A stretch of 64,000 nucleotides of DNA, from contig JBGQHO010000007.1 in NCBI GenBank assembly GCA_041497955.1, positions 15,691 to 79,690 of the forward strand, in the 5' to 3' direction. Shown here piece after piece: positions 9,023-33,059 of the stretch. The stretch is from Terriglobia bacterium (GTDB lineage: Bacteria; Acidobacteriota; Terriglobia; Acidiferrales; UBA7541). Position 1 is the first letter of the stretch, and every line of letters starts with the position of its first letter. The position numbers and the translations under genes were made by a program. Below the pieces are notes generated by a model, which was given only the letters and a program-made list of their open reading frames with translations, searched no databases and was not told the origin of the DNA.

Positions 9023-10561
9023 TCAGTCTTTCCGCTGGCGCAAGCGGGCCCGCAACGCGGCGTCAATCGAGCGCGCAGCTTTGCGGGCAGGCACCATGGC
9101 CGTGACGATCAAGTCCGCGCCGCGTACGCAATCGCCCGCCGCCCAGATTTCCTGTTCGCGGCTGGTCTGCCCATCCTCTTCCGTGCCCACCCAGATCGTG
9201 CCCCACTTCGTGGACTTCAAATTCTCGGCGCTTTGCGCGATTTCATCTTCCACGCTGTAGCCGATTGCCACCACGGCCGTATCGCACTCGAGAACGAAGT
9301 TCGACCCCTCGATGGGCACCGGGGTGCGGCGGCCCTTGGCGTCCGGCGCGCCCAGCTTCATGCGGATGCATTCGCACGCCATGACGTTTCCTTCCGCGTC
9401 GCCGATGAATTTCACGGGCAGCGTGAGCCACTCGAACTTGACACCTTCCTCACGCGCGTTGATACGTTCTTCGTAGCGCCCGGGCATCTCGGTTTCGCTG
9501 CGGCGATAGACGCACCAGACTTCGCCCTCGGTACACAGGCGCCGTGCCGTGCGCACGCAATCCATCGCCGTGTCGCCGCCGCCGACTACCACGGTGCGCC
9601 GGCCCACGTGCGGGCGCCCGCGCAGGTTCTCGGGGAGCAGCTCGTCCGGCAAGTTCCCGCGCACTAGATATTCGGTGGCGTTGTAGACGTTCTTTAGATC
9701 CTCGCCGGGGGTTTTCATGCGATTGCCGGCGCTGGCCCCGTGGCCCAGGAATACGGCGTCGAAGCCGTGCTTGCACAAGAGATCATCCGGGGAAAGATCC
9801 TTCCCGATGCGCACGTTGCAGCGGAACTCGACGCCCAGTTTCTCGAGCCAGCGGATTTTTTCCCAAACGATGCGCTTGTCGAGTTTGAATCCAGGAATAC
9901 CGTAGACGAGCAACCCCCCCGGACGCGGCCACGCCTCGAAGATCGTGACGGTGTGCCCGCGCTTGACGAGCTCTTCGGTCACCGCGAGTCCCGCCGGACC
10001 CGACCCCACCACAGCGACGTGCGTGCCGAGCGGCGGCGGCAGCGACGGCACAGGATAGCCGCCGAGATGGTCGCGGGTGTAGTCCACGCAGAACCGCTCC
10101 AGCTTGCCGATAGCTACCGGCAAGCTGTAGGTGCGGACAACGCACGCGCCCTCGCACTGTTTTTCCTGAGGGCAGAGCCGGCCGCAAATATCGGGCAGGT
10201 TCGAGGTCTCCATGAACTTCAGTGCCGCGGCGCGCACATCTCCTTGCTCCAGCATCCACAGCGCTGCCGGGATATCGTTGTGCGCCGGGCAGCCGAACGT
10301 GCAGGGGTGATGCTCGCACTGCAGGCAGCGGCCGGCTTCCAGCATTGCTTCGCGCAGCGAAAGCGCGAAGGAAACCTCATCGAAATTGTTCAGCCGCTTT
10401 TGGGGGTCTTGTTTGCGCGCCTTCACCGGCTCTTTGCGCAAGCGTTGCCGGCGGATCAGCGGTTGCGCCTCGGGAGCATCCGCGGACTCGACCGGCGGCT
10501 GCTCCGCGCCTTCCCAGGAATTAGCACGCATCAAGTCCGCCACTGCATCTTTGTCCTTCAT
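9023..10561 (-). CDS. GltD-family NAD(P)H-dependent FAD/Fe-S oxidoreductase (glutamate synthase small-subunit-like)
   Basis: N-terminal Cys clusters (CLQCEHHPCTFGCPAHNDIP, CGRLCPQEKQCEGAC). Two Rossmann motifs (VAVVGSGPAGL, VVVGGGDTAMDC). C-terminal IWAAGDCVRGADLIV. Start taken at Met37 (MKDKD), whose ATG overlaps the hemN stop (ATGA). Confidence 0.85.
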   Translation of the reverse strand: MKDKDAVADLMRANSWEGAEQPPVESADAPEAQPLIRRQRLRKEPVKARKQDPQKRLNNFDEVSFALSLREAMLEAGRCLQCEHHPCTFGCPAHNDIPAALWMLEQGDVRAAALKFMETSNLPDICGRLCPQEKQCEGACVVRTYSLPVAIGKLERFCVDYTRDHLGGYPVPSLPPPLGTHVAVVGSGPAGLAVTEELVKRGHTVTIFEAWPRPGGLLVYGIPGFKLDKRIVWEKIRWLEKLGVEFRCNVRIGKDLSPDDLLCKHGFDAVFLGHGASAGNRMKTPGEDLKNVYNATEYLVRGNLPDELLPENLRGRPHVGRRTVVVGGGDTAMDCVRTARRLCTEGEVWCVYRRSETEMPGRYEERINAREEGVKFEWLTLPVKFIGDAEGNVMACECIRMKLGAPDAKGRRTPVPIEGSNFVLECDTAVVAIGYSVEDEIAQSAENLKSTKWGTIWVGTEEDGQTSREQEIWAAGDCVRGADLIVTAMVPARKAARSIDAALRARLRQRKD

Positions 10562-12021
10562 AGCGTCTTTGAAAAGAGCGGGCGGCTCGCCAGTTTCTGC
10601 CGCTCGAGATAGGGGTCGAAAACCATCGCCACGTTGCGGATGAAAATCCGCCCCAGCGCCGTGACACAAATCTCCGATGGATTTATTCGCACCAGTCCGT
10701 CGGCGACGTACTCGCGCAAGCGCTCGAGTTCTGCGCCGAAGTATTCGTCAAAAACGATGCCCTGCTCGCGCTCGACCTCGGCCTTGGGAATCACCGTGTG
10801 GCAAAGCAACCGGCTGATCACAGAGCGACGGATGCGGTCGTCACGCGTCAGGCGATATCCGCGCATCGTGGCGATGCCGCGGCGCTCAACCTGCGCCTGA
10901 TAACCAGCCAGGTCTCGGTGGTTCTGCGCGTAGGTGTCGCCGACGCCGCTGATGGCGCTGACGCCCATGGCGTAGAGATCGGCGCCGGCTTTCGTCGTGT
11001 AGCCCTGAAAATTCCGGTGCAGCGTGCGGTTTCCCTGCGCAATAGCCAACTCATCCGTGGGACGCGCGAAGTGGTCCATGCCGATATAGAGGTAACCGGC
11101 CTCAACAAACTTCTCGAGGCCCGTCTGGAAGATTCGGAATTTCTCGATGCCTTCAGGCAGGTGCGTGGCGAACGAGCCCTGTTGCTTCTTGAGCCATGGC
11201 ACGTGCGCGTAGCTGAACATCGCCACGCGATCCGGCGCGAGTGAGAGCACCCGATCGACTGTCGCGGCGAAGCGCTCGGCGGTTTGATACGGCAGCCCGT
11301 AGATGAGGTCGGCGTTGATGCTCTCAAATCCAAGCGCGCGTGCCGCGAGAATCAGATCGCGCGTCTGCTCAAACGCCTGTACGCGGTGGACGGCGCGCTG
11401 CACCTCGGGATGGAAGTCCTGAATGCCCAGGCTCAGGCGGTTGAAGCCCAGGCGGCGCGCCGTCTCGACGTGCTCACGTGTAGTGACGCGCGGGTCCACT
11501 TCAATGCCGATCTCTGCGCCGGGAGCAATCGAAAAATGCTCACGCGCATAACCGAACAGATCCTCCATTTGCGCCGGGCTCAGGTACGTCGGCGTGCCGC
11601 CGCCCCAGTGAAACTGAATCACAGGGCGTTCGCGGGAAACGAACCGGCTGACATGAGCGATCTCCCGCTTCAGCGAGGCGAGGTACGGCAGCGCGATGGA
11701 CTTGTCTTTTTGGATGACAACGTTGCACGCGCAGAACAGGCAGAGGCTCTCGCAGAACGGAAGGTGCATGTAGAGAGAAACGGGCGTCGTTCTCTTGGCT
11801 TCACCGAAGGCTTGCTCAAGGTCGTCCGGCCCGAAGTCTTCTTGCCAAACAGGAGCGGTGGGGTAACTCGTGTAGCGCGGGCCAGGGCGGTTGTACTTAT
11901 TCAGGAACTCTTCGGTGACATTGAAGCGTTGGGGGCCGAATTCCAACGGGACGCCGGTGGCCGTCTTGGCGCCGCCTTCCCAATCTGGAACTGAAGACCC
12001 GGAACGCCCAGCCATCCGCAT
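10558..12021 (-). CDS. hemN: Oxygen-independent coproporphyrinogen III oxidase (radical SAM)
   Basis: GPRYTSYPTAP N-terminal motif, radical-SAM cluster CESLCLFCACN and GGGTPTYL. Full-length HemN size. Start chosen at Met11 (12021), which has a GAGGGG Shine-Dalgarno; Met13 is also possible. Confidence 0.9.
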   Translation of the reverse strand: MRMAGRSGSSVPDWEGGAKTATGVPLEFGPQRFNVTEEFLNKYNRPGPRYTSYPTAPVWQEDFGPDDLEQAFGEAKRTTPVSLYMHLPFCESLCLFCACNVVIQKDKSIALPYLASLKREIAHVSRFVSRERPVIQFHWGGGTPTYLSPAQMEDLFGYAREHFSIAPGAEIGIEVDPRVTTREHVETARRLGFNRLSLGIQDFHPEVQRAVHRVQAFEQTRDLILAARALGFESINADLIYGLPYQTAERFAATVDRVLSLAPDRVAMFSYAHVPWLKKQQGSFATHLPEGIEKFRIFQTGLEKFVEAGYLYIGMDHFARPTDELAIAQGNRTLHRNFQGYTTKAGADLYAMGVSAISGVGDTYAQNHRDLAGYQAQVERRGIATMRGYRLTRDDRIRRSVISRLLCHTVIPKAEVEREQGIVFDEYFGAELERLREYVADGLVRINPSEICVTALGRIFIRNVAMVFDPYLERQKLASRPLFSKTL

Positions 12022-12208
12022 GCCGAAGCCCCTCAAGCGTAAACGGAGCAAGAGCGGTGCCAGCCGAGCTGGCCTCGTTTTGCATGTAATTCCTTTTATT
12101 GCAATGATTTGAAAAGGCTCAGTGGCGCGGGTCTTCTGCCCTTCTGCGCGGCTTGGCTCAGTTGGAGCCGGCGGATGGGCCTGTTGCCCCAGTTTCCTTT
12201 GCCTCAGC

Positions 12209-14509
12209 CTAGGAGCTTTCCGGCGGCTGCTTACCTGGCCCGGAAGGCTTGGGCAGTGAGTCGGGGGCCGCGGGGTTTTTGGGGGCGTCTTGTGGCACGG
12301 GGCTGGCCTCGTCTTCCGAGGCAGGCTCCGCGCCAGCTTCCTCTACGTCCAACCCCGCAGTGCGGGAATCCTTCTGCTCGCGAACAAGCTGCACGTGATA
12401 CGCCGGGCGCGTGTGACGCAGGTGATCAGCCGAAGCCTTGCCGGTCAGCCAGGAAAGATCCATCGGGTAGACGTCGGGATCAAACATCACCACATAGAAG
12501 TGCCAGAGCAGAATGGAGAGCGTCGCCAGGATGGCTTCGTAGTAGTGGACGGCCGTAGCCGCATCCGCCACCCACTTCGGGAAGTGGCGCAGCGTGAAAT
12601 TGATGAACCACAGCAGGAAGCCCGAAAGGCCCATGACCACCGAGCCCCACACGAACGCCAGGTATTCCAACTTTTCGACGTAGTTGAACTTGCCGAAGGC
12701 CGGCGGTTCGGCCAAAAGACCCAGGTTGTAGCGCGCGGTGCCGAAAATGTCGAACACATCCTGAATCCGCGGCACCATCAACTGGAGAATCCTGCCGTCG
12801 CGCTGCGATGCCAGCAGATGAATGAAGTGATAGACCATCGAAGCAATCAGCACCACCGCCGCTGCGCGGTGCAACGTGCCGCGCAGCGCGAAGCGGCTTT
12901 CCCAATGCAGAAGCGGCTGAGCCCACCACGACTCCGGGAACTTCAGCGCAAACCCGGTGACCACGAGCACCGGGAAGCTCAGCATCACCAGCCAGTGCGC
13001 GATGCGGAAGTTCAGATTCATGCGCACGACTTGCTCGCCGGAATGGCTGCGCGGCCCGTTGCGGATGAGCTTTGCGAAAAAGTCCAGCCCATTGTGCAGG
13101 AGCATGAAGCCGAGAGTGAGCGGGATCAGCACCCAGTAGGTCACGCGGATCCACTTCACGACCGGATGCTCGCTCGCCGAGGCCGGGCGCACGTGAATCG
13201 CCCCGATGGCGAAGCTGGCGCCTGCGCCCGGATGACACGCGCCGCAGGTGCGCGCGAGGTTCGCAGCGTTCACCGTGGAACGCGGATCGTTGGACGGCAG
13301 GATGTTATGCACACCGTGGCACGAGGCGCAGTTGGCCACCGTCTGCGAGCCGGAACGCAGCGCCAGCCCGTGATAACTATCCGCGTACGAGGACACGCGG
13401 TCCGCGGGCAGGTTGTAGCGCTGCGCCAAGCGTTCGTCGGAATGGCAGCGGCCGCAGGTGACACTCGAGACGCGCGCGGGGTTCACCAGCGACTGCGCCT
13501 CGCTGGGCGCGAGGATTATGTGCTCGCCATGACAATCGGTGCAGACCGGCGCATCGCGCACGCCCTGCTTCACCGCCCGCCCGTGCACGCTTTCCTGATA
13601 CGCCTTCTTGATGTCGGTGTGGCACGTGCCGCAAGTTTCCGGAATGTTCCAGTGATTGATCTTTGCCCCAGGATCGCGCCCGGGAAGGATGCCGTGACTC
13701 CCGTGGCAATCCGAGCAGGAAGGAGCGGCCGGGTTCCCGGCAGCGACGGCGCGGCCGTGGACGCTACGCTGGTATGCCTCAACGGGATGAGCAAAAGGAA
13801 TATTGTGCCGCGCAAGAAATTCCGGATTCGCATGGCAGCTCCCGCACGTGGCGGGCAGGCGTTTCTTGGTGACGCGCGACGCTGGATCTCCGGCAGGCAG
13901 GATCTTGTGCACGGGCCCGTGGCACGACTGGCAACTCGCGCCTTCGAGGTCGCCACTTCTGCGCGCCGCGGCGTGGACGCTCTTCTCGAATTCGCGGACC
14001 TCGTCCCCGTGGCAGGCGGCGCACTGCACGGGCACGAGCGTCGCGCCGCGCTGTGCTTCGTGCGCAGAACCATGGCAGCTCACGCAAGCCTGCGTTCCTG
14101 TGCCGAGAGCCGCGTGGATGCTCTTGCCCGCGTCCGCGGCGGATTGGTCGTGGCACGTCCCGCAGCTCACCTTGGGCATGTGCTTCGGGTGCGGATACTC
14201 CTTCACGCCGACGTGACACGTGTCGCAGGTTAAAGCGCTGTGCGCACTGGCCGCATGCTTGGCCGGATCGACATAGATGCTGCGGCCCGACTCCGACTTC
14301 ATCCCCGCCTGGCCGTGACACGCCAGGCACTGCCCGTCCTGAGCCGGCCGCGGACGCGCAGCAACGCTGGCGGCGCACACCAACACGAGCAAGAGAGTGG
14401 CAGTAAGATCCGCCAAGGATGTGCTCAGCGACCGGGTTGTTCGACCGCGCGGATGGTGTCCCATCGGGCCGACCTTCTTCCGTTGCATGGCGCGGCGGCT
14501 ATTTGACAC
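12209..14509 (-). CDS. 13-heme c-type cytochrome fused to a C-terminal FdnI/HydC-type membrane cytochrome b domain (CbcL-like)
   Basis: 766 aa. Signal/anchor sequence, then 13 CxxCH motifs (CLACH, CDTCH, CGTCH, CVSCH, CAACH, CQSCH, CGSCH, CSDCH, CGTCH, CTDCH, CGRCH, CASCH, CGACH). The last ~300 aa has about 5 hydrophobic helices carrying conserved His (IAHWL, HRAAAVV, HFIHLL, VHYYE, LWHFY). Confidence 0.85.
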   Translation of the reverse strand: MSNSRRAMQRKKVGPMGHHPRGRTTRSLSTSLADLTATLLLVLVCAASVAARPRPAQDGQCLACHGQAGMKSESGRSIYVDPAKHAASAHSALTCDTCHVGVKEYPHPKHMPKVSCGTCHDQSAADAGKSIHAALGTGTQACVSCHGSAHEAQRGATLVPVQCAACHGDEVREFEKSVHAAARRSGDLEGASCQSCHGPVHKILPAGDPASRVTKKRLPATCGSCHANPEFLARHNIPFAHPVEAYQRSVHGRAVAAGNPAAPSCSDCHGSHGILPGRDPGAKINHWNIPETCGTCHTDIKKAYQESVHGRAVKQGVRDAPVCTDCHGEHIILAPSEAQSLVNPARVSSVTCGRCHSDERLAQRYNLPADRVSSYADSYHGLALRSGSQTVANCASCHGVHNILPSNDPRSTVNAANLARTCGACHPGAGASFAIGAIHVRPASASEHPVVKWIRVTYWVLIPLTLGFMLLHNGLDFFAKLIRNGPRSHSGEQVVRMNLNFRIAHWLVMLSFPVLVVTGFALKFPESWWAQPLLHWESRFALRGTLHRAAAVVLIASMVYHFIHLLASQRDGRILQLMVPRIQDVFDIFGTARYNLGLLAEPPAFGKFNYVEKLEYLAFVWGSVVMGLSGFLLWFINFTLRHFPKWVADAATAVHYYEAILATLSILLWHFYVVMFDPDVYPMDLSWLTGKASADHLRHTRPAYHVQLVREQKDSRTAGLDVEEAGAEPASEDEASPVPQDAPKNPAAPDSLPKPSGPGKQPPESS

Positions 14510-15944
14510 CCAGGTCTTTCAAGACTTTGGGGTCAGCTTCTTCCATCGCCAGGATGGTGTGGCACGCATTGCAATCCTGCGTGATCGAACGACCGTCTGA
14601 GCTGACGTGGCTTCCGTCGTGGCAACGGAAACAGCCGGGATAATCCTGGTGCCCGAGGTTATTCGGGTGAGTGCCCCACGTCAGGCGCATGGAGGGGAAT
14701 ACATTGCGCAGGTAGATGCCGGCTACTTGATCCGCCGCGGTCTGGACAAGCGAGCCGTGCCTGCGGAAGACGTCGGGATAGCTGGTGCGATAGAAGTCAT
14801 TAATCGTTGCAACGATCCGTTGGCGCGCCGTCTCGCGATCCGGATACTCGGTGCGCAAGACGTCCACCGCCTTTTTCTTGATGAAAGGAAGCTGCGGGCT
14901 GATGCGGCCCTCGGCCATTTCCTTGTCCACCGCAGGTTCCGGCAACTGGAAGGCGTGCGTGGGGCGATTGTGGCAGTCCATGCAGTCCATCAAGCGGTGC
15001 TCGCCGCGCGCGAGCTCTTCTGCCGCGGGTTTCACTTCCGTCGAGGCATACTCCACAGATTGGCCTTTATCGTCGGTGTAGGTCACCTTCGGGATGACCT
15101 GGCGGCCCCCGGTCGAGATGTAGTTGACCTGCAGGCCGTTCCCCAAATGCCGTCCATGGATGCCCACCGAGCCCTGCCAGGAGATCCCGCCGATCTTCAC
15201 GACGAGCACGGTGTACAGCGGCGTGTTCTTTTCGTCGTCGGAGAACTTCGTGCGCACAAGGAATTTGTCGCCGGTAAACTTCTGTGGCCAGTGGCATTGC
15301 TCACAGGTCTCCCGGGCCGGGCGCAGGTGCTCCACGGGCGAAGGAATTGGCCGCGAATACGTCTTGAAGGTAACTGCAAAAACCTGGCGGACGCCGGAAA
15401 GTTTGGACCGGACAAACCACGGCGCGCCGGGGCCAATGTGACACTGCACACAGCCGACGCGCTGGTGCGGCGAATTCTGGTACGCCGTGTACTCCGGGGC
15501 CATCACGCTGTGGCACGTCAGGCCGCAGAACTGCACCGAGTCCATGTACTCCACGCCGCGGTACGACGCCGTTCCCAGAATGGCCACATTCAATAAGGTC
15601 ATGCCTCCCACCCACGCGAATCCCCGGCGGACGAGCGGCCGACGCAAATCAATTTGCGGGTAAACCGAAGGCAGTTCACCCGCCCGGCGCAACTTGTGTC
15701 GCTGCCAGATGACCCCCGCCGGCATCAGCAAGAGCCCGAGGACAAACACTCCCGGCAAGACAAGGATAAATACGATGCCTGCATAGGGATGCACGGACCC
15801 GCCGCCGATAATCTCAAACAGCCAGAAGCCGATCAGCGTGATGGCCGAGCTAGTGGTCACCACCGCGCCAGTCAACGTGGCCGGGTTCTGACTCAGGTAA
15901 TATGCGGGCCGCAGCCAATAAGCGAGCCGTTCGGGGAGTCTCAT
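14499..15944 (-). CDS. Membrane-anchored NapC/NirT-type multiheme cytochrome c with 3 N-terminal TM helices (ImcH-like)
   Basis: 481 aa. Three N-terminal hydrophobic helices. NapC/NirT-like stretch FCGLTCHSVMAPEY...SPH..VGCVQCH. Five CxxCH (CVQCH, CEQCH, CMDCH, CFRCH, CNACH) plus one CX3CH (CGLTCH, nt 15510-15527). Overlaps the downstream gene by 11 nt. Confidence 0.8.
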   Translation of the reverse strand: MRLPERLAYWLRPAYYLSQNPATLTGAVVTTSSAITLIGFWLFEIIGGGSVHPYAGIVFILVLPGVFVLGLLLMPAGVIWQRHKLRRAGELPSVYPQIDLRRPLVRRGFAWVGGMTLLNVAILGTASYRGVEYMDSVQFCGLTCHSVMAPEYTAYQNSPHQRVGCVQCHIGPGAPWFVRSKLSGVRQVFAVTFKTYSRPIPSPVEHLRPARETCEQCHWPQKFTGDKFLVRTKFSDDEKNTPLYTVLVVKIGGISWQGSVGIHGRHLGNGLQVNYISTGGRQVIPKVTYTDDKGQSVEYASTEVKPAAEELARGEHRLMDCMDCHNRPTHAFQLPEPAVDKEMAEGRISPQLPFIKKKAVDVLRTEYPDRETARQRIVATINDFYRTSYPDVFRRHGSLVQTAADQVAGIYLRNVFPSMRLTWGTHPNNLGHQDYPGCFRCHDGSHVSSDGRSITQDCNACHTILAMEEADPKVLKDLGVK

Positions 15945-16012: not shown

Positions 16013-17281
16013 TCAGGGCGTCCGACGGTTGGTCCTCTTTCCCTCCAGGTCACGAATGAGCAACCAGAGTGCAAGGATCACGAAGGCAATCACAACCAGT
16101 GACAGCGCCAGGCCCTTGCGCCGGAAAGCGCGCTCTGCCAGGGCCTGCTGCCCCGCCAGGTTTGCCTGTTCGGCGAGCTTTTTCCCCGCCGCCGTGGTTT
16201 CCTCGATGTTTGGCACGTTCAACGCGTGCACATCCACGCGCGCCTTGATCAATTTCTCTCGCCCGCTGTAGAGCGTCACGCGGCCTTCGCCCACATCCAT
16301 GCCCGCGCGTTCGGCGCGCTCCAGAATCGCTGCGGCCTGCTGAAGCGAAGTGTCCAATCCCGTCAGCGCGGCGTGGGCCTGCTTGGCTGTTTTTCCTCCG
16401 GGGTCATCCTCGGAGTGGCATCGCAAGCAAAGAGATTCGTTGCCCGCGCGCAGCAGGGCATCGCTCGTGCGGCGCACAGCGTGATTACTGTGGCAGGTCA
16501 GGCAGGCGGCGATCTTGGCCTGCTGCCAGGGCTGTTTGTGCGGGCTCTGGTCGAACAGACGTTCCTGAAAGACGTGACAGGTGCCGCAGACGCGCTCGAT
16601 GGAACCGACTCCGGGCGGTGCGGCGCCGTGATTGCCGTGACAGGTCGCGCACGTGGGCGCCGACAAATCTCCCCCCTGAAGCTTTTCATTGTGCACGCTG
16701 GCCTGGTAGTTCTTCAGTTGGTCGGTCGGGATCTTGTACGGCTTCATGTATGCGGCATCGGCGTGACAGCGCCCACAGGTCTTAGGAATGTGCAGTGGAT
16801 GCACACTGGAAAGCGGGCTCGAAGCCGGGCGAATGTTGTGCGCGCTGTGGCAATCCATGCAGACGGCCACGCGCGTATCGCCGCCGCGCAGGCGCTTCCC
16901 GTGCACGCTGGTCCAATATTGCGCCAACTGATCGGTGCGCAGCGACGGGTTGTAGGCCCGCATGTAGGCGCCATCGGAATGGCAGCGGGCGCACAGCGTG
17001 GGGACTTCCGAGCGCTTCGGCGTGCCGCGAAACCCTTTCGCGCGGTTCATGGCCTTCGTGGGATCTTCCTCGTTGGGATTGCCGCCGTGACAATCGGCGC
17101 AATTTAGCCCGCGCGCCGCGTGCACGTCGTCGGCAAACAGCTTGGCGGGATCGCCGAGCTTCCCCTCAAACGCAGCGTGGCATTCGCGGCAGCGGTCTAC
17201 CGGCGGCTTATCCGCAGCCGCAACGGCCACTGCGGTCGCCAGAAGAACCAACGCCATGCCGAGCCATCGCTGCCGCATCAT
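16013..17281 (-). CDS. Nonaheme c-type cytochrome with C-terminal membrane anchor (cytochrome c subunit of the adjacent Rieske/cyt b complex)
   Basis: 422 aa. Signal peptide, then 9 CxxCH (CRECH, CADCH, CARCH, CMDCH, CGRCH, CATCH, CGTCH, CLTCH, CLRCH). Helical C-terminal region ends in a TM helix (LALSLVVIAFVILALWLLI). The start codon directly abuts the cytochrome b stop. Confidence 0.85.
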   Translation of the reverse strand: MMRQRWLGMALVLLATAVAVAAADKPPVDRCRECHAAFEGKLGDPAKLFADDVHAARGLNCADCHGGNPNEEDPTKAMNRAKGFRGTPKRSEVPTLCARCHSDGAYMRAYNPSLRTDQLAQYWTSVHGKRLRGGDTRVAVCMDCHSAHNIRPASSPLSSVHPLHIPKTCGRCHADAAYMKPYKIPTDQLKNYQASVHNEKLQGGDLSAPTCATCHGNHGAAPPGVGSIERVCGTCHVFQERLFDQSPHKQPWQQAKIAACLTCHSNHAVRRTSDALLRAGNESLCLRCHSEDDPGGKTAKQAHAALTGLDTSLQQAAAILERAERAGMDVGEGRVTLYSGREKLIKARVDVHALNVPNIEETTAAGKKLAEQANLAGQQALAERAFRRKGLALSLVVIAFVILALWLLIRDLEGKRTNRRTP

Positions 17282-18367
17282 TTAACCTCGCCAGGCCCAA
17301 ACACTCATCGCCACGATGTACAACACAGCTCCGACGCCGGCCCAGGCAAGCAGCCGCCCGGTGCGTCCATGTGGATTGCGGTCCAGAAACGGCACCATCA
17401 GCCACAACGCACCGGCCAGCCCGAACACAAGCAAGCCGACCTGTTCGCCTTCAATCCCCAACACGCGCCCGGGAATCACCTTCAGCGTCTGGAAGAGAAA
17501 CAGGAAATACCACTCCGGCCTGATGCCGGCCGGAGTCGCGGCAAACGGGTCGGCCTTGACGCCCAGGTCCCAGGGAAAGAGCGCCGCCAGCGCGGCCAGG
17601 ACGCCGAGAGCGAAATACCACCCCATCAGGTCGCGCAGCAGGAAGTTGGGAATGAAACTGTAGGAAGGCACCTTGCCGTCCGGGTGGGCGCGCTCCACCG
17701 AAGGCGGAACGCTCATGCCGAACTTCTGCACAAGAAAGAGGTGGGTCGCGACGACCACTGTGGTCAGGGCCGGGAAAACGGCCACGTGAAAGCCGAAGAA
17801 GCGTGTCAGCGTCGAGCCGGTCACGTCTTCCCCGCCGCGCAGGAATGTCAGCAGCCAAGTGCCGATCACGGGCACCGCGGCCATCATCTGCGTGCCGACC
17901 TTCGTGGCGAAGAACGCCAGCGTGTTCCAGGGCAGCAGGTACCCGCTGAATCCGAAGCCGAAAAACAGCAGTAACAGGATGCAGCCTGTCACCCACGTCA
18001 GTTCGCGCGGCTTGCGGTACGCCTTCAGGAAAAATGCGGAGAACATGTGCAGCATGGCCGTGAAGATGAGCAGATTGGCCGACCAAGCGTGGATGCCGCG
18101 CACCAGCCAGCCAAAACGCACCTTGGTCATGATGAACTGCACGCTCTCGAAGGCTTCTCCGGGCGAGGGCCGGTAGTAGAGCAGCAGCAGAATGCCGGTC
18201 ACCACCTGCACGATGAAGAGGAACAGCGTCATCCCGCCGAGGTAATACCAGAGCGTGTGCCGGTGCCGGGGCACCTGCTTGTGGGTCAGCCAGTCCAACC
18301 CACCCTTGCCGAAGCGTTCCTCGAGCCAGCCGCGGATCCGGGCAGCCGGGCTGTGCTTTGCGTCCAT
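17282..18367 (-). CDS. Cytochrome b of a Rieske/cytochrome b (bc1/b6f-type) complex, b6 and subunit-IV-like parts fused
   Basis: Start at Met46 of the ORF (MDAKHS), 2 nt after the Rieske stop. Typical cytochrome b sequence ([57 protein letters not shown]). Confidence 0.9.
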
Positions 18368-18369
18368 GG

Positions 18370-18834
18370 TCAAGCGCGCGACCCGCGCGAGACGACAATC
18401 TCCTTCCCGCGCACGTGAACTTGAAACTCCTCGAGCGGACGCGGTGGTGGCCCGCTGACGTTTCGCCCCTGCAGGTCGTACACGCCGTTGTGGCAGGCGC
18501 ACCAGATGTCGTGCTCGCCCGTTCGGTATTGCACCGTGCAGTTCAGATGGGTGCAGACCGCACTGAGCGCCCGATAGCTGCCGTCGGCCTGGCGGATCAG
18601 GATCCCCGGGCGGTTGCCAAAACGAAAGATTTTCGCGGAGTTCGGAGCCAGTTCATCGGCGCGCGCCGCCACCGCATCGGCATCGAGCTCTCCGGTGCGC
18701 GGGGGGAGAAGAAATTTGAGGATGGGGTACAGAACGGAAACGAGCGAAGCTGCAACCCCGGATCCGACCAGCAACTCAAGGACACGCCGGCGGGCCGCCT
18801 TGGGCGGCCCGCCGGCGTCCACATCACTGGACAC
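18370..18834 (-). CDS. Rieske [2Fe-2S] iron-sulfur subunit
   Basis: 154 aa. Arg-rich N-terminus with TM helix. Cluster-binding boxes CTHLNC and CACHNG. Confidence 0.9.
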
Positions 18835-18880
18835 AGCCCGTTCTCCTTGCTCGGTGTCGCTTCAGCCTGCGCGGCGCTCG

Positions 18881-19213
18881 CTACTTCTTTGCAAGGCTGC
18901 GAAGAAACGCGATGACGTTGGCGGCTTCCTCGTCGGTCAGCTTCACCGGCTTCATCTTGCCGTTGCCCTCGACGATGACCTTGTGGAGCTGTGCGTCACT
19001 CTTGGCCTGCACTTCTTTGGAGGCCAGGGGGCGCATCTCCACTTTGAACATCTTCGCGATCGCGTCTTTTCCTTCGCCACCCGGCCCATGGCACGTGGCG
19101 CACTTGCTGGCGAAAACCGCCTTGCCCTTCGCAGCGTCGCCGGCCGCCCAAACCAGCGCGGACACGGTAAGCACCACAGCCACGAGCGCCGCTATCTTCC
19201 ACCCTGCCTTCAT
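18881..19213 (-). CDS. Class I monoheme cytochrome c (c553/c6-like)
   Basis: 110 aa. Signal peptide, a single CATCHG motif, and a distal Met region (GNGKMKPV). Confidence 0.85.
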   Translation of the reverse strand: MKAGWKIAALVAVVLTVSALVWAAGDAAKGKAVFASKCATCHGPGGEGKDAIAKMFKVEMRPLASKEVQAKSDAQLHKVIVEGNGKMKPVKLTDEEAANVIAFLRSLAKK

Positions 19214-19282
19214 TCCGCCTCCTCAAAACAGGACTATGTTCCGGAGCCACGAGCAGGAAACTCTTCGCCGCTTGCGCAAGGC

Positions 19283-20613: not shown

Positions 20614-22146
20614 ATGGACTTGAAAGTGCCTCCAACGGGCGCGTGGGTCGGGGGTCTGATGGTCTTGCATTTCAAGGGCTGGTCGCAGCGAATCCAAAGG
20701 ACCTTTAGCTCGCTCCGCACTGGGATCGTGCTCCTGATTACGCTGGGAGTTGTGTCCGCCGCAGGCACGTTTGTCCTGCAGCGTCCCCTGACCGACGCGG
20801 AAAGGCTCGAGCGCGCGTACGCGCCGGAAACGCTTCGCTGGCTCGATCGTCTGAGTCTGACCGACGTGTTCCACTCCTGGTGGTTTGCCCTTCTGCTGGC
20901 TGCGCTCGGCCTGAACATCATCCTGGCTTCCCTTAAACGCTTCCCCGTGGCCTGGGCCTATGTGCAGCGCCGCTACGCCCGGCCCGATGCGCACTTCCTG
21001 AAAGGGCTCACGCTGCAGCGCGAGATTCAGATCCCGGGCAAAGAGATTGGCCTCGCCGCCGCCGAAAGGGCCTTCCGGCAACTGCGGTTCAAACCGCAGG
21101 GTGTGGCTAGCCAGGACGGCATGTCTCTTTTCGCCGAGCGGAACCGCTTCGTGCGGCTGGCCGCGTATCTGGTGCACGCCAGCCTGCTGCTGATTTTCGC
21201 CGGAGCCATTGCCGATGCACTGCTGGGCTACCGCGGCTACGTCGCGCTGACTCCGAACCGGCAAACCAACTTAGTCGAACTCAGCAACGGCAAGATGAGA
21301 ACGCTGCCTTTCGTGGTTCGCTGCGATGACGCGGGCCAGGAAAACTATGCTGACGGCTCGCCGCGCCGCTGGTGGTCAAAGCTCGTGGTGCTCGACAGCG
21401 GGCGCGAAGTGCTGCGAAAGGAAATCGCGGTCAATGACCCGCTGGTCTTCCGCGGCGTGCGCTTCTACCAGTCCGGCTACGGTTCGAGCGGCGATCTCGG
21501 CGCCCTCCGGCTGCGCGTCGTGCCCAAAGCGAATCCCGCCGACACAAGAGAAATTGTCCTGCACCCGAACGAGACGCTGGCGCTCGACGCGGAGAATTCG
21601 GTCCGCGTAGCTGCTTTCTTCCCCGATTTTGTGATCCGCGGCAAACAGGTGGAGACTCGCTCGGACCAGCCGAATAACCCGGCGATCCAGCTCACGGTGG
21701 ACTCGAAGAAGTCCGGCGCTACGAAGTTGTGGCTGTTTGCGAACTTCCCGGAAGTGAACCACGCGGATGAATCGCCCTTCAGCTTCCAGCTCCGCGATCT
21801 GCAAATGGGCTGGTTCACAGGCCTGCAGGTGTCACACGAGCCGGGCCAGTGGGCCGTCTGGATTGGCGTCGTGCTGATGATGGTGGGCTTGGCTGCGGCA
21901 TTCTATTTCATCCACACGCGTGTGTGGGCGGTGCCGATCAGCGACGATCGCGGTCGGCTAGTGCTTTGGGTGGGCGCTTCGGCCAGCAAGAACCGCGAAG
22001 AATTTGAAGAGCGCTTCAGCAAGTTGGTGGCGGAAATCTTGGACGGCCTTAAGGCGCCCTACGGATCGCGCGGCACAGTGAGCCGCACATCCGGAAGCCA
22101 TCACTTCCTGGTGAACGCGGCAGCGGCGCTCAAGGGGAGGAGTTGA
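20614..22146 (+). CDS. resB: Cytochrome c biogenesis protein ResB/Ccs1 (System II)
   Basis: N-terminal TM helices ([39 protein letters not shown]), a large periplasmic domain and a C-terminal TM. Immediately followed by ccsA. Start could also be Met at 20659. Confidence 0.85.
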
Positions 22147-22151
22147 GAGCC

Positions 22152-23576
22152 ATGGCGGGAGCACTGGCAACCACCGACCTCAACCGGCGCGCCGCAGCAC
22201 AGCCGGCTACGACCGGCAATCTGTTTCTGCTCCTCGTTGGGCTGGGCACGGCGCTGCTGCTTTTCACCGCCTTTCTCTCCGCGGTCAAGACCGGGCCGCT
22301 CTTCACTGAAGACAACCTGCTCTACGCCGCGCTGATTTTTTACGCTGCCGCGGCTGCGCTCTATATCGGTTACGGCGTGACCACGGCTCTGCGCCTGGCG
22401 CGTTTTGCCACCCTGGCTACGGCGCTGGGCCTGATCGCTAATACGCTGGCCGCCGGGCATCGCTGGTATGCGGCGGGGCACCCACCGTTTTCGAGCATCT
22501 ACGAAATGCTGCTGAGCTTCGTGTGGACGCTGGCAGCGCTGACGCTGTTTGTCGAGCGGCGCTACGGCGTGCGCATCATCGGCAGCGTGACGCTGCCGCT
22601 CGCGACGCTGGGCGTGATCCTGATGCAGTTGCTGCCCTCGCCGGTGCGGCCACTGGTGCCGGCGCTGCAATCCACCTGGCTGCACGTCCACGTGACGCTG
22701 GCGATGCTGGCCTACGCCGCGTGCACGGTGAGCGTGGCGCTGGCTCTGCTCTTCCTGATCCAGGACAAAGTCCGCACGGAGACGTTCCTGGCGGCCACCT
22801 CGGCCGCGCTTGTCGCGATCTATGCCGGCATCTCCACGCGCTTCGACGCTTCCGGAGCGCTGCGCGTCGTGGCCTGGGATCCCGGCGAAGGCCGCGAAAT
22901 CTTCATCGCCGAGAAGACTCCGCTGTTCGTGATGATTCCCGGCCTGGGCTGGCTGATGTTTCTCGTGCTGGCCGCGGCCCTCGTTCCGCTGGCGTTGTGC
23001 GCTTGGGCGCAGTGGAACCGCGAAGAGCGCGGCCTGGTCTGGGCCAATCGAGCATTCTTCCCGGGCCTGCTGCTGCAAGGGCTGGCGCTCGGGGCATTCG
23101 TCATGCGCGCGCGGCAGGGATTCTACGCGTCGCGCCAGGCTGACGGCCTGTTCCCCACGAACCTGGCTGCGAGTCCTTTTCTCCTTTCCGGCCTGGCGGG
23201 AGGCCTGCTGATTTCCCTGCTGTACCTGCTACTGTTCTGGCGCCGCGAACAGCTCGAGGGCCTGCTGCCCGTCGCCGAGCGGCTGGATCGCCTCACCTAT
23301 AAGACGATCGGCATCGCGTTCCCACTGCTCACGTTGATGATTGCAGCCGGAGCCTACTGGGCCAACCGCACCTGGGGCTCCTACTGGAGCTGGGACCCGA
23401 AGGAAACCTGGGCGCTCATCACCTGGATGATCTACGCCGGCTACCTGCACATGCGCATCACGCGGGGCTGGCGGGGCCGTCGCGCGGCCTATTTCGCAAT
23501 TCTCGGCTTTGCGGTGGTGATGTTCACGTTTTTTGGCGTCACATACTTGCTGCCGGGTTTGCACGCGTACGCCTAG
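22152..23576 (+). CDS. ccsA: Cytochrome c biogenesis protein CcsA/ResC (System II heme handling)
   Basis: Polytopic membrane protein with WWD-type motif [18 protein letters not shown] and conserved His residues. Confidence 0.9.
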
Positions 23577-23805
23577 GGTGCTGTCCGCATTTCTCCGCCG
23601 CGCCGGCTTGGAGAAAGGGGTAGGAGATGGCTAGAGGGCGAGGACGAGCACCGGCCCGTAACTCAACCGACTCCTGATCCGAATCACACTTGAAATTGAA
23701 TTCCAAATTCGTACAATGGGCACGCCGGGGAAATAGCCGGGTGCCCACCCTTCCTGCTTGCGGATTTCTGCAAGCCAACTGGCCGCCCCACTTGAGGAGT
23801 GTCCT

Positions 23806-24753
23806 ATGAAGAGATCACGAAAACTGGTGCTGTTCGCGCTCGGGCTTGTCCTCGCCCTGGTGCTCTTCTGCCTGGCGCCCGCGGGCGCCGCCGATCGCGC
23901 GCAGGAAAAGAAACCCGCCGCCCCGGCCAAAGATTCGTCCCAATACATCGGAGCGGATACCTGCAAGCAGTGCCACGAGGATGTGTACAAGAAATTCGAG
24001 ACCACGCCGCATTGGAAGACGACGCTTGGAGCCATCCGCGGCATCGAGGCGCACGGCTGCGAATCGTGTCACGGTCCGGGCGCGGATCACGTCAGTGGCG
24101 GCGACAAGAGCAAAATCTTCACCTTCAAGGGAGCGACCGCGAAGCAGATCAGCGCGCGCTGCCTGGAGTGCCACGAGTACGGGGAGGAACACAGCAACTA
24201 TGCCCGCTCGGTCCACAAGATCAACGACGTGAGCTGCATCGATTGCCACTCGGTTCATAAGGCCAAGGAGTCGCAGTTCCTGCTGGCGAAAGCGCAACCT
24301 CAGCTCTGCTACTCCTGTCACCAGGACATCAGGCCCGAGTTCAATAAGCCCTTCCGCCACCGCGTGAACGAAAGCCTGGTGAAGTGCACCGATTGCCATA
24401 ACCAGCATGGCGGCTACATGACCAAACAGTTGCGAGCCACCGCCGCGCAGGACGTAGTGTGCTTCAAGTGCCACGCAGACAAGGCCGGGCCCTTTGTGTA
24501 TGAACATCATGCGGTCAAAGGTGAGGGGTGCGTGGCCTGCCACATGCCGCACGGCTCGTCGAACCCGCGCCTCCTGAAACGAGCCCAGGTCAACCTGCTC
24601 TGCCTGGAGTGCCACACGCCGACCGGCGGACCATCAGACGCTGTACCGCCGGGAACGCCCTCGTTCCACAACCAGGCGCAGAAGTATCAGGCTTGCACGA
24701 TGTGCCACGTGCAGATCCATGGGTCCAACTTGGACAGAGTCTTCTTCAAGTGA
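23806..24753 (+). CDS. Periplasmic decaheme c-type cytochrome, DmsE/MtrA/PioA/MtoA family
   Basis: 315 aa from the ATG preceded by GAGGAG. Signal peptide, then 10 CxxCH (CKQCH, CESCH, CLECH, CIDCH, CYSCH, CTDCH, CFKCH, CVACH, CLECH, CTMCH). C-terminal CH.QIHGSN ending and about 330-aa size are typical of the family. Confidence 0.85.
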   Translation: MKRSRKLVLFALGLVLALVLFCLAPAGAADRAQEKKPAAPAKDSSQYIGADTCKQCHEDVYKKFETTPHWKTTLGAIRGIEAHGCESCHGPGADHVSGGDKSKIFTFKGATAKQISARCLECHEYGEEHSNYARSVHKINDVSCIDCHSVHKAKESQFLLAKAQPQLCYSCHQDIRPEFNKPFRHRVNESLVKCTDCHNQHGGYMTKQLRATAAQDVVCFKCHADKAGPFVYEHHAVKGEGCVACHMPHGSSNPRLLKRAQVNLLCLECHTPTGGPSDAVPPGTPSFHNQAQKYQACTMCHVQIHGSNLDRVFFK

Positions 24754-24853: not shown

Positions 24854-27361
24854 ATGAAACCGACTCGCTTCGCCCTGAACTTCAGCGCTCTTGCCCTGGT
24901 TCTGCTGCTTTGCATGAGCTTCCCCGCCATGGCCCAGGAATCGGAGAAAGCGCCTGAGGGCATCAACTCTGGAAATTACAACATCAAGCAAACGGTGGAG
25001 CTTGGCGGGCGCATTATTCCAGATTCTGACTTCCGAGACACCCGCGGGACCCGCGAGTTGTTCAACACCTTCGTGAACCTGCGGAGCGGGGCACGGCTGC
25101 TGGACTACACGCTGGAGATGCGCTCGCTGAACCACGAAGGTTGGCTGTTCGACAGCCTCTACTACAGCAATTTCGGTTACGGCGGCGACCCGAACAACGT
25201 CTCGCGGCTGCGGGTGTACAAGAACAAGTGGTATAGCTTCAGCGGCACGTTCCGCCGTGACTACAGCTTCTGGGACTACAACCTGCTAGCCAACCCGTTG
25301 AACCCGAGCACCCCGGTGGCAAACGCTCCGGCGGGTTTTTCGCCGACCATATTGTTTTCGCCCCATGCGCAGGCGCTGGTGCGGCGGATGAGCGATTACA
25401 ATCTCACCTTCCTGCCGCAGTCGCGCGTGCGTCTTCGCCTGGGGTACAGCCGCAACGTCCAGGAAGGACCGTCGCTCAGCACCTTCCACGAAGGGACCGA
25501 CGTGTTGTTCTTCCAGGACTGGAAGACGACCGTCAATTCTTACCAGATTGGTGTGGACTTCAAATGGCTGCCCCGCACCAACATCAGCTACGACCAGTTC
25601 TTCCACTATTTCAAGGGAGACACTTCCTGGGTGGACCGGAGCCAGACCTTCGCGCTTTCCAACGGCGTCCCAGTGGACATCGGACTCCCCATCAACACCG
25701 CCGCGGGCCAGCCGTGTGCCCAGCCTTTCAATCCGTCCACTGCACAACCGACAGCGCCTGCGGGGACCGTCAACGCCACCTGCAACGCCTACCTGGGTTA
25801 TACGCGCCAAGCGCCTACTCGCACGAACTCTCCCACAGAGCAACTGAGTTTCCAATCCAATTACTTCAAGAATCTCGACCTTTCCGGGCGGTTTGTTTAC
25901 AGCTCGTCTGACAATACGGCGTTTGGCAACGAAGCTCTAAACGCCCTGATTACACGCACGAGAACGCTCGTGCGCAACGAAACCGGGCCGGTTTCGGGGC
26001 GTCGCGTCTCGGTTTCGGCAGACTTCGGCATCACCGTGCACGTCACCGACAAGTTGCGCGTCATGGACATGTTCCGCTTCGCCAATTTCCGACTCCCCAT
26101 GCAGTGGCTTTTTACGGAGTGCTCGTTCTTCGCTGCCGGCAATCCTGCTTCTATGCTGCTGCCCCCCACGGTATTCACTGCGACGGCTCCTCTGCCGGCT
26201 ACCTGTGCAGCCCCAGCCAATGGTGCCGCGGGAACACCGACACACAGTACGTCCTCACCCCCTGACGTTGAGTTGCGGGTCTCCAGCCGATTCTTCAAGC
26301 AGGACATCAAGAACAACCTGTTTGAGGTGGAATACGATTTCACCCGGCGCTTCGGCGCTCGGGTGGGCTACCGCTTTCGGCACCGCACGATCGCCGATGC
26401 CATCTCCGAATCAGGAACGTATGTCTTCTTTCCCAGCTTACAAAACGGGCGTACTCCCGAACCGCCCCTCAACGTGACCGAGAGCGGCGCATCGAACACT
26501 TGTCCGGTGGCCAACAACCGGTCCGATAACACGTGCCTGCTCACCGCCGAGTTGAGTGACTCAGGCAGTACGGAGATCAACGAGCACTCGGGTCTGTTCG
26601 GGATCTGGGCGCGGCCCACGGATGCGCTGCGCGTGAGCTTTGACCTCGAGCTGATGTCGGCCGATAACACATTCACGCGCGTTAGTCCGCGGCAGTTGCA
26701 GCACTACAAACTGCGCGCTAGCTACAAACCGACCCCGTGGATGGGCTTCGCAGGGACAGTGAACATCCTCGAAAACCGCAACAACGTTTTCCAGGTCAAC
26801 AACCTGCAACACAACCGCCTGTACGGGTTCAGCGCCGCCTTCGAACCCAACGAGCGAATCAGCTTCGACTTCGGCTACGACTACAACAACGTGTTCTCTA
26901 CTTCGCTCATCTGCTACCCGGTTACGCAGCCGGCGCCGTCCACCCTGCCCGCGTGCGTCGATGCGACCCTCGCGCCCATCCCCGGCTTGGTTGCGAACAC
27001 GTCCTTCTACAAGAACAAGGCGAACTTCTTTTACTTCGACGTGTCGTGGCGGCCGGTGAAGCGGCTCCGCACTTACGGCGGCTACTACCTTACCAGCACT
27101 TCCGGGAGCACCCTCATCATCGCTGGGCCGCAGGGAACGACCGGGGTGATCCCGAATCCGCCGACAGGCCCGCTGGCGTACAACTTCCACAAGCCCTACG
27201 CCGGCGTGACGTTTGACCTGTACAAGGGCCTGAGCTGGAAGGGGGAGTGGAACTATTACGGGTACAACGAGAAGGAGTCGGCCTTGCCGCTGGTGGACCC
27301 AACAGGCCCCCGGGACTTCCGCGGAAACATTGTGACGCTGGCGGTGCGCTACGCCTTCTGA
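24854..27361 (+). CDS. Large outer-membrane beta-barrel protein, MtrB/PioB-like partner of the decaheme cytochrome
   Basis: 835 aa from the ATG preceded by GGGAG. Signal peptide MKPTRFALNFSALALVLLLCMSFPAMA. Alternating hydrophobic, Tyr/Gly/Asn-rich beta-strand pattern throughout, with C-terminal ...LAVRYAF. Lies 100 nt downstream of the decaheme gene. Family assignment is by context and composition only. Confidence 0.65.
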   Translation: MKPTRFALNFSALALVLLLCMSFPAMAQESEKAPEGINSGNYNIKQTVELGGRIIPDSDFRDTRGTRELFNTFVNLRSGARLLDYTLEMRSLNHEGWLFDSLYYSNFGYGGDPNNVSRLRVYKNKWYSFSGTFRRDYSFWDYNLLANPLNPSTPVANAPAGFSPTILFSPHAQALVRRMSDYNLTFLPQSRVRLRLGYSRNVQEGPSLSTFHEGTDVLFFQDWKTTVNSYQIGVDFKWLPRTNISYDQFFHYFKGDTSWVDRSQTFALSNGVPVDIGLPINTAAGQPCAQPFNPSTAQPTAPAGTVNATCNAYLGYTRQAPTRTNSPTEQLSFQSNYFKNLDLSGRFVYSSSDNTAFGNEALNALITRTRTLVRNETGPVSGRRVSVSADFGITVHVTDKLRVMDMFRFANFRLPMQWLFTECSFFAAGNPASMLLPPTVFTATAPLPATCAAPANGAAGTPTHSTSSPPDVELRVSSRFFKQDIKNNLFEVEYDFTRRFGARVGYRFRHRTIADAISESGTYVFFPSLQNGRTPEPPLNVTESGASNTCPVANNRSDNTCLLTAELSDSGSTEINEHSGLFGIWARPTDALRVSFDLELMSADNTFTRVSPRQLQHYKLRASYKPTPWMGFAGTVNILENRNNVFQVNNLQHNRLYGFSAAFEPNERISFDFGYDYNNVFSTSLICYPVTQPAPSTLPACVDATLAPIPGLVANTSFYKNKANFFYFDVSWRPVKRLRTYGGYYLTSTSGSTLIIAGPQGTTGVIPNPPTGPLAYNFHKPYAGVTFDLYKGLSWKGEWNYYGYNEKESALPLVDPTGPRDFRGNIVTLAVRYAF

Positions 27362-33058: not shown

Positions 33059-33059
33059 A

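Follow-up and report, generated by a model that had tools for sequence, protein, structure and literature searches.

A predicted MtrAB-type extracellular electron transfer locus with linked quinol modules in Acidobacteriota

Gene content of the cytochrome island

The window analysed here is a stretch of 64,000 nucleotides (nt) from a metagenome-assembled genome (MAG) contig (JBGQHO010000007.1) of an Acidobacteriota host (class Terriglobia), and it contains an island of multiheme cytochrome c genes together with the gene of a large outer-membrane barrel, predicted here to serve extracellular electron transfer (EET). Several MAG contigs from soil and sediment carry DNA identical to the window (e.g., GCA_041492885.1), and the public gene calls on them give the same genes, four of these with slightly shorter starts. 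The named homologs and related loci belong to Acidobacteriota, Terriglobia and 'Ca. Acidiferrales/Acidoferrum'. Protein families were scanned with Pfam and NCBIfam as far as ~53.5 kb of the window. Heme-binding motifs were tallied on translated open reading frames (ORFs) of >=90 amino acids (aa) with coding-like third-position GC (GC3 > 0.72). The original prediction, made from the DNA letters, had counted 38 CxxCH motifs and one CX3CH motif in five proteins, and the translated ORFs gave the same counts, all between positions 12209 and 24753:

12209-14509, minus strand: 13 CxxCH
14499-15944, minus strand: 5 CxxCH and one CX3CH (CGLTCH)
16013-17281, minus strand: 9 CxxCH
18881-19213, minus strand: 1 CxxCH
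23758-24753, plus strand: 10 CxxCH

As no other window ORF within these limits carries a CxxCH, the density of heme motifs is far beyond chance. The proteins of the island, with their coordinates, are:

12209..14464, minus strand: fusion of the CbcL/MtrH/MtoC type by architecture, 751 aa, with a 13-heme periplasmic domain and a C-terminal HydC/FdnI-type cytochrome b (PF01292)
14499..15944, minus strand: inner-membrane cytochrome of the ImcH type by architecture, 481 aa, with three N-terminal transmembrane segments, CX3CH at residue 140 and five CxxCH (PF03264 NapC/NirT region)
16013..17281, minus strand: nonaheme cytochrome c (9 CxxCH) with a signal peptide, a stretch of ~100 residues free of hemes and, at the C-terminus, a transmembrane anchor (391-409)
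17282..18367, minus strand: cytochrome b of the fused b6 and subunit IV type, 361 aa, seven transmembrane segments (PF00033 177 bits, PF00032 42 bits)
18370..18834, minus strand: Rieske [2Fe-2S] subunit, 154 aa, with an N-terminal transmembrane anchor and the boxes CTHLNC and CACHNG (PF00355, 50.6 bits)
18881..19213, minus strand: class I monoheme cytochrome c, 110 aa, opening the cytochrome operon (PF13442, PF00034)
23806..24753, plus strand: periplasmic decaheme cytochrome c of the MtrA/DmsE family, 315 aa, with a signal peptide and 10 CxxCH (TIGR03508)
24854..27361, plus strand: outer-membrane beta-barrel, 835 aa, a remote and enlarged MtrB/PioB-superfamily porin by fold and profile-profile comparison

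The cytochrome genes on the minus strand and the decaheme and barrel genes on the plus strand are two divergently transcribed operons, and from the monoheme c gene through the CbcL-like gene the intergenic gaps are 0-68 nt, which is operon packing.

The decaheme cytochrome and the barrel

The decaheme cytochrome matched TIGR03508 over model positions 1-257 of 258 (264.2 bits, cutoff 192.2), and its residues 18-308 align full-length with chain A of 6R2Q (E = 4.9e-41), which we take to be MtrA. By these matches the protein is a bona fide member of the MtrA/DmsE family. In the local PDB name table 6R2Q chain A is entered as 'Cystathionine beta-synthase', apparently a mislabelling in the source. 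Both proteins of the pair also have matches among Geobacter models: the decaheme reached 232 bits against the 'GSU2203 family decaheme' model (cutoff 325; NCBIfam pair NF041028 / NF041027), and the barrel gave a weak C-terminal-model match of 22 bits to the neighbouring NCBIfam model 'GSU2204 family CXXCH (seleno)protein'. The uncharacterised GSU2203/GSU2204 pair of Geobacter may be a closer relative than the MtrAB of Shewanella, and almost nothing was found in the literature on this pair.

The 835-aa protein has a signal peptide and the C-terminus ...VRYAF, typical of outer-membrane barrels. Searches with the hidden Markov models (HMMs) TIGR03508 and TIGR03509 had been proposed as a test of the pair; the decaheme passes TIGR03508, and the barrel fails TIGR03509 as well as PF11854. 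Searched as a family of 46 members, the barrel gave one marginal match to PF11854 (E = 0.012), ten divergent family representatives matched no Pfam family, and PDB sequence searches with the single sequence and with the 46-sequence profile found nothing. Judged by these searches, the family is without any Pfam or NCBIfam model. Since curated models and PDB sequences gave nothing, the barrel was examined by its predicted structure and by profile-profile comparison. The AlphaFold2 model based on the 46-sequence family alignment is a large barrel with a predicted local distance difference test (pLDDT) score of 78.8, and its DSSP string, counted without coordinates, holds ~29 strand elements, that is, roughly 28-30 strands, while MtrB, MtoB and PioB are given as having 26 beta-strands (PMC10654088). 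When the model was compared with the PDB by Foldseek, rank 1 was MtrB (6R2Q_B, E = 5.2e-16, template modelling (TM) score 0.53/0.67, 12 % identity), and the next matches were TonB-dependent receptors with TM scores of ~0.3.

For the profile-profile test, an authentic MtrB from an mtrC-mtrA-mtrB locus on a Photobacterium replicon was used as reference and as seed for a diverse MtrB/PioB alignment; this genuine MtrB (from L087) scores 510 bits on PF11854. Aligned by hhalign, the barrel and MtrB/PioB alignments matched with a probability of 95.9 % (E = 5.5e-9) over 487 co-linear columns, which is most of MtrB, whereas reversed and block-shuffled controls that keep composition and strand periodicity reached 0.3-3.2 %. 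Because of this difference to the controls, and because MtrB is the best fold match, the barrel is a genuine though very distant and enlarged representative of the MtrB/PioB superfamily, outside all curated models. The porin-cytochrome pair that had been proposed thus holds for the barrel at the level of profile-profile and fold comparison only.

The barrel family is large, with 2,059 clusters at 50 % identity at E <= 1e-3 and 491 at E <= 1e-30, and species-representative genomes have at least 517 loci that encode it. Across the 46 members C288, C310, C451, C687 and C701 are invariant and C550 is near-invariant. In the model, long segments between strands hold C288, C310, C451 and C550, and C687 and C701 are in or next to short strands; the invariant cysteines may form disulfide-stabilised surface loops.

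Quinol-oxidising modules and the monoheme cytochrome

The ImcH family is that of Levar 2014 and of Zhong and Shi 2018. The transmembrane segments of the ImcH-like protein are at 28-46, 56-74 and, weaker, at ~108-127 (mean Kyte-Doolittle ~1.4, calculated by hand), and its heme motifs are spaced 25/49/107/117/20, in agreement with the published ImcH homologs of Geothrix (24/49/109/117/20) and G. bremensis (24/49/106/117/20). ImcH homologs are defined by three N-terminal transmembrane helices, an adjacent atypical CX3CH and 5-9 CX2CH motifs (Zhong and Shi 2018, PMC6295460). More than 8000 homologs of the protein are labelled merely as NapC/NirT or hypothetical. A one-mismatch sigma-54-like site lies at 16059-16074 on the minus strand, within the 3' end of the nonaheme gene and ~115 nt 5' of the ImcH-like start, a possible internal promoter of the imcH and cbcL genes.

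The 766-aa ORF of the CbcL-like protein matches PF01292 at residues 498-676 (45.6 bits, cutoff 30.1) and, N-terminal to this domain, multiheme Pfam families; in the 751-aa protein the 13 CxxCH span residues 46-407. Four transmembrane segments follow the last heme (484-661, at a threshold of 1.6), and one weaker hydrophobic segment before them was seen by eye. The CbcL/MtrH/MtoC group is defined by a multiheme domain of 3-23 CX2CH joined to a HydC/FdnI-type dihaem cytochrome b with ~6 transmembrane segments (PMC6295460), an architecture that the 13-heme/cytochrome b fusion fits. Both quinol modules had been foreseen in the original prediction, and the two cytochromes fit the respective definitions.

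The presence of a Rieske/cytochrome b pair, hemN, resB/ccsA and the 835-aa barrel was likewise borne out, the barrel by its signal peptide, C-terminus and model and the others by Pfam and NCBIfam matches. The cytochrome b has the four heme-ligand histidines with spacing 13/14 and the Qo motif PEWY (PEWYF), and its best NCBIfam models are both below cutoff, cytochrome b6 with 221 bits and ExtP with 210 bits (cutoff 290). The third redox subunit beside the Rieske/cytochrome b pair is a 9-heme protein and not a monoheme cytochrome c1 or cytochrome f. It is most likely that this nonaheme replaces the cytochrome c1 of the complex, because its gene follows the cytochrome b gene with a gap of 0 and the protein has the heme-free stretch of ~100 residues and the C-terminal anchor. 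The PDB relatives of the monoheme c are of the c6, CcoP and c552 types, and none is named MtoD.

Conservation of the locus among relatives

All island proteins were searched by tblastn against the best 80 of the at least 517 barrel loci, taken from other acidobacterial genomes, and modules were counted within 10 kb in the 50 well-flanked loci that have >=9 kb on either side. A decaheme gene is directly 5' of the barrel gene in all 80 loci (80/80). The other parts occur in the 80 loci as follows:

Monoheme c: 63
Nonaheme c: 37
Rieske: 34
CbcL-like: 33
Cytochrome b: 32
ImcH-like: 23

The nonaheme, Rieske, CbcL-like, cytochrome b and ImcH-like genes are mostly on the same strand and directly 3' of the barrel, and six loci (L035, L046, L074, L077, L079, L083) have the whole set in a single row as mtrA-barrel-Rieske-cytb-nonaheme-c-imcH-cbcL. 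The quinol modules of the well-flanked loci are:

At least one quinol module: 45/50
CymA-like: 25/50
ImcH and/or CbcL: 19/50
CymA-like together with ImcH or CbcL: 0/50
Rieske/cytochrome b/nonaheme: 19/50, alongside either kind
Combination of the window (bc-type complex, ImcH and CbcL): 11/50

The CymA-like protein is a NapC/NirT tetraheme of ~208 aa that does not occur in the window and that follows the barrel and the monoheme c in many loci (e.g., L015 at 12850-13476, L008 at 12827-13444 and L030 at 12449-13075, with 38 further loci); the layout decaheme-barrel-monoheme c-CymA-like is found in 25/50 relatives. Of the five proteins inspected, four have CX4CH (CLSSGCH) as the fourth heme motif, and that of L030 has a canonical CX2CH. 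The idea of one genomic unit is supported by this synteny, in which the decaheme-barrel pair is kept in 80/80 loci and a quinol module in 45/50. For System II maturation, which had been counted as part of the unit, this conservation does not hold, as resB/ccsB are linked to the conduit in only 1/80 relatives. Judged from the relatives, the two divergent operons of the window with resB/ccsB between them are derived; L056 has the same arrangement, and L050 has part of it. Identity across the loci is 43-60 % for the barrel versus 60-86 % for the inner-membrane proteins, and a faster divergence of the barrel is expected since it is surface-exposed. Based on the synteny over 80 loci, we read the island as a real, conserved and modular EET unit of predicted function that is rearranged in the window.

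The CbcL-like protein of L046 (~18195-21100, plus strand) has 969 aa and 19 CxxCH, while other relatives have 11 or 13, and the length of the periplasmic heme wire would therefore vary between lineages. In four cases two decaheme-barrel loci were found in one MAG (L022 and L024, L025 and L028, L044 and L045, L013 and L040); barring errors of assembly or binning, these genomes have two copies of the conduit. In addition, L013, L040 and L069 are contigs of MAGs labelled 'Candidatus Dormiibacterota' that carry an otherwise acidobacterial barrel, which could be due to mis-binning or horizontal transfer.

Maturation, regulation and gene neighbourhood

Genes for heme supply, cytochrome maturation and signalling surround the cytochrome genes, the four regulators having been named by Pfam and NCBIfam:

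10558..12021, minus strand: HemN, oxygen-independent coproporphyrinogen III oxidase (TIGR00538, 568 bits, cutoff 325)
20614-22146, plus strand: ResB of System II cytochrome c maturation (PF05140, 294 bits)
22152-23576, plus strand: CcsB/CcsA of System II (TIGR03144, 252.9 bits, cutoff 187.6)
23690..23717, plus strand: candidate sigma-70-like promoter, AT-rich, TTGAAA-16-TACAAT, by consensus match only, ~90 nt 5' of the decaheme gene
27396-27824, minus strand: response regulator
27821-29110, minus strand: protoglobin-coupled histidine kinase
29191-30312, plus strand: HAMP histidine kinase
30327-31787, plus strand: sigma-54-dependent NtrC-type response regulator

The resB/ccsB genes are placed 5' of the decaheme gene. 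A perfect sigma-54 consensus, TGGCACCGCTCTTGCT, lies at 12047-12062 on the minus strand, 26 nt 5' of the hemN ATG and within the 187-nt gap after the CbcL-like gene. The number of sigma-54 near-matches in the whole window was not above chance, and neither was the region-wide count of the sigma-70 scan. The same four regulator genes are found again beside the barrel in L050 and L056, loci with the arrangement of the window, and the protoglobin kinase and response regulator beside the barrel suggest a control by gas or redox sensing.

Further along, hemA (glutamyl-tRNA reductase) overlaps the ORF of a tetratricopeptide repeat (TPR) protein with a CcmH/CycH-like TPR domain (32432-34619 for this region, minus strand), and the stretch 37443-44912 (plus strand) encodes a 1241-aa pyruvate:ferredoxin oxidoreductase (PFOR), a tandem universal stress protein and a two-subunit 2-oxoacid:ferredoxin oxidoreductase. 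A hemerythrin gene is also near the island. According to these assignments, heme supply and anaerobic carbon metabolism are encoded close to the island. On its other side, a protein of 1215 aa that carries Sortilin/Vps10 and BNR/Asp-box repeats (2675-6322, minus strand) is encoded 5' of a CoA-transferase and a TonB-like gene.

Discussion

It is probable that the locus represents a modular MtrAB-type EET system of Acidobacteriota, with outward electron flow as the most likely direction. The decaheme would be threaded in the lineage-specific enlarged MtrB-like barrel, as MtrA is in MtrB, and electrons would move through this complex across the outer membrane. The ImcH-type, CbcL/MtoC-type and Rieske/cytochrome b/nonaheme modules would oxidise quinol and so couple the conduit to the menaquinone pool, the 13-heme and 9-heme periplasmic domains and the monoheme c would bridge the periplasm, the latter probably as a class I carrier, and ResB/CcsB and HemN would provide covalently attached heme without oxygen. 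In the outward direction the chain would allow the cell to respire Fe(III), Mn(IV), complexed Fe(III) or humic quinones when oxygen is absent or scarce. The ImcH and CbcL of Geobacter are potential-specific quinol oxidases, and parallel quinol oxidases might similarly serve different acceptor potentials here, the ImcH- and CbcL-type oxidases being suited to progressively lower-potential acceptors. At a soil pH of 4-5 the Fe(III) oxide/Fe(II) couple should be several hundred mV more positive than at pH 7, and therefore the Rieske/cytochrome b complex and class I cytochromes could also join the outward chain, which would then conserve extra energy via a Q cycle.

Outward flow is favoured because surveys in print link the MtrA-like genes of Acidobacteria and 'Ca. 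Acidoferrum' to a potential for Fe(III) reduction, and because ImcH homologs are so far known only from Fe(III) reducers (PMC6295460). The Fe-cycling potential of the lineage had already been inferred in print. Outward and low-oxygen use is also favoured because the O2-independent HemN follows the operon in the same orientation, and because the protoglobin kinase, hemerythrin, PFOR and 2-oxoacid:ferredoxin oxidoreductase are encoded nearby.

Several points weigh against this reading. Class I monoheme cytochromes c and Rieske/cytochrome b complexes usually work at high potential and deliver electrons to oxidases. With its two components, the conduit is more like the Fe(II)-oxidising MtoAB/PioAB than like MtrCAB, and the single barrel sequence of the window matches neither PF11854 nor TIGR03509. 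The assignment of the 481-aa protein to the ImcH type is one by architecture and motif spacing, and the linkage of hemN and resB/ccsB is not kept among relatives. Furthermore, neither the window nor the 80 related loci have an MtrC/OmcA-type surface cytochrome; no unmatched ORF in the 80 loci has more than four CxxCH, and the TIGR03507 matches in the window are weak and sub-threshold. The 'complete' path from membrane to outside that had been proposed for the locus is therefore unproven.

The same parts could instead run inwards, in an MtoAB/PioAB-like oxidation of Fe(II), a mineral or a cathode, with the monoheme c passing electrons to a terminal oxidase and the Rieske/cytochrome b or CbcL/MtoC-type module passing part of them to the quinone pool. 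Class I c-type cytochromes and Rieske/cytochrome b are typical of the chains of Fe(II) oxidisers, the conduit is two-component and lacks MtrC, CbcL/MtoC homologs are present in Fe(II) oxidisers, and the decaheme-barrel-monoheme c-CymA-like layout of half of the well-flanked relatives equals the order mtoA-mtoB-mtoD-cymA (PMC6295460). However, the occurrence of ImcH homologs and the published link of the lineage to Fe(III) reduction speak against it, and so do HemN, PFOR, hemerythrin and the protoglobin sensor, which indicate low-oxygen use. No oxidase or carbon-fixation gene was found in the scanned part of the window, and the monoheme c has no specific similarity to any PDB chain named MtoD. 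Inward flow is thus a rather unlikely alternative, although the strongest of the three.

It is clearly improbable that the Rieske/cytochrome b/nonaheme/monoheme c genes are a housekeeping aerobic complex III that lies near an unrelated outer-membrane pair by chance. While cbb3 or aa3 oxidases ordinarily receive their electrons through Rieske/cytochrome b and a class I c, and the gene sets of the window are on opposite strands with regulators and maturation genes between them, in 19/50 loci the Rieske, cytochrome b and nonaheme genes are on the same strand between the barrel and an imcH/cbcL or cymA-like gene, and a cluster of a porin with Rieske/cytochrome b is also conserved in Geobacter. A chance juxtaposition was rejected because the co-directional linkage repeats across species with 43-60 % barrel identity. 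The least credible alternative, that the multihemes are subunits of N- or S-oxide reductases (Nrf, Hao, Otr, MccA) or feed a DmsEF-like extracellular reductase of soluble substrates, draws on sub-threshold matches to NrfH (46 bits, cutoff 134), NrfB, HmcA and the octaheme tetrathionate-reductase family, but all of these are far below cutoffs, as generic multiheme packing predicts, and neither the scanned part of the window nor the conserved neighbours of the pair include NrfA, Hao, Otr, MccA or a molybdopterin catalytic subunit. The reading as nitrite, sulfite or hydroxylamine enzymes was rejected on the same grounds, and the assignment of the proteins to EET-type families stands.

As in the MtrAB of Shewanella (6R2Q), a decaheme of the same family is encoded directly 5' of a large barrel whose best fold match is MtrB. 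Unlike MtrB, the barrel of the window has 12 % identity to it, is ~130-190 residues longer, has, by the DSSP string of its model, roughly 28-30 strands instead of 26 and fails PF11854/TIGR03509, and unlike in Shewanella MtrCAB there is no MtrC/OmcA gene in the window and the inner-membrane partner is not CymA. MtoAB-MtoD-CymA/MtoC of Gallionellaceae and PioAB of Rhodopseudomonas share with the locus a two-component conduit without a surface cytochrome, and the Mto cluster also encodes a monoheme c and a quinone module of the NapC/NirT or CbcL/MtoC type alongside. The window differs from Mto and Pio in a barrel of a different family at the HMM level, in a generic class I monoheme c, in the additional ImcH and Rieske/cytochrome b/nonaheme modules and in a host lineage of heterotrophic Acidobacteriota linked to Fe(III) reduction.

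The ImcH (GSU3259) and CbcL of Geobacter sulfurreducens have the same architectures as their counterparts here, including the fusion of a multiheme domain with a HydC/FdnI cytochrome b. The ImcH-like protein has six heme motifs (Geothrix type) against seven in Geobacter, and the CbcL-like protein 13 against nine. In contrast to Geobacter, imcH and cbcL of the window adjoin each other and are linked to the mtrA-barrel pair, and Zhong and Shi 2018 (PMC6295460) explicitly stated that a linkage of this kind is absent for every imcH. The Geobacter extHIJKLMNOPQS cluster, linked to selenite and tellurite reduction, similarly has a porin (ExtI) and multihemes clustered with the Rieske protein ExtO and the cytochrome b ExtP, but the cytochrome b of the window scores below the ExtP cutoff, and the porin ExtI (45 kDa) and the cytochromes of ext are of other families. 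In Rhodoferax ferrireducens several alternative quinol oxidases, including one of the CbcL/MtrH type, are beside the conduit, with two cymA and mtrH next to mtrABC (PMC6295460); that system is proteobacterial, with canonical MtrB and MtrC, CymA instead of ImcH and no Rieske/cytochrome b module. The statement that the genes of such chains are normally scattered is overstated, as the cymA/mtrH-mtrABC genes of Rhodoferax, the mtoABD-cymA operon of Sideroxydans and the ext cluster of Geobacter illustrate.

Every part of the locus is of a known kind. On acidobacterial MtrA, ImcH and PioAB homologs the literature (including PMC6295460) has only general statements, and in the searchable literature we found no account of precisely this operon for Acidobacteria, of the barrel of Acidobacteria as a distinct, HMM-invisible branch of the MtrB superfamily that is always paired with a decaheme, of a linkage of imcH to an mtrA-barrel pair, or of the alternation of CymA-like with ImcH/CbcL modules and an optional Rieske/cytochrome b/nonaheme complex. 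We consider the finding solid and ecologically relevant, and not conceptually unexpected; function and direction are predicted.

Taken together, it is possible, although doubtful, that many soil Acidobacteriota carry an HMM-invisible MtrAB-type conduit, often hard-wired to a Rieske/cytochrome b-nonaheme complex. If so, extracellular respiration would be coupled to a proton-motive Q cycle, which would be sensible only with the high-potential Fe(III) or humic acceptors of acidic soils, or in reverse with Fe(II) oxidation, and the CymA-like, ImcH/CbcL and bc-type modules would be plug-in units swapped by niche. Standard iron-gene HMMs would be blind to this conduit because the porin is too divergent.

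In contrast to earlier surveys, which reported no such linkage, ImcH, CbcL and the bc-type complex are here linked genetically to an MtrAB-type conduit. FeGenie uses TIGR03509 for mtrB, and since the porin fails TIGR03509/PF11854, surveys that need an MtrB match and rule-based iron-gene callers may under-count such systems. The alignments and the 80 syntenic loci could be used for phylogeny and for primer or HMM design.

Acidobacteriota rank with the most abundant bacteria of soils, and their oxygen-free respiration is poorly known. The locus provides a testable gene model, with an invariant decaheme, a divergent MtrB-like barrel and exchangeable quinol modules, for how these bacteria may exchange electrons with iron minerals or humic matter, which would be of relevance for the cycling of iron, phosphorus and carbon in acidic soils.

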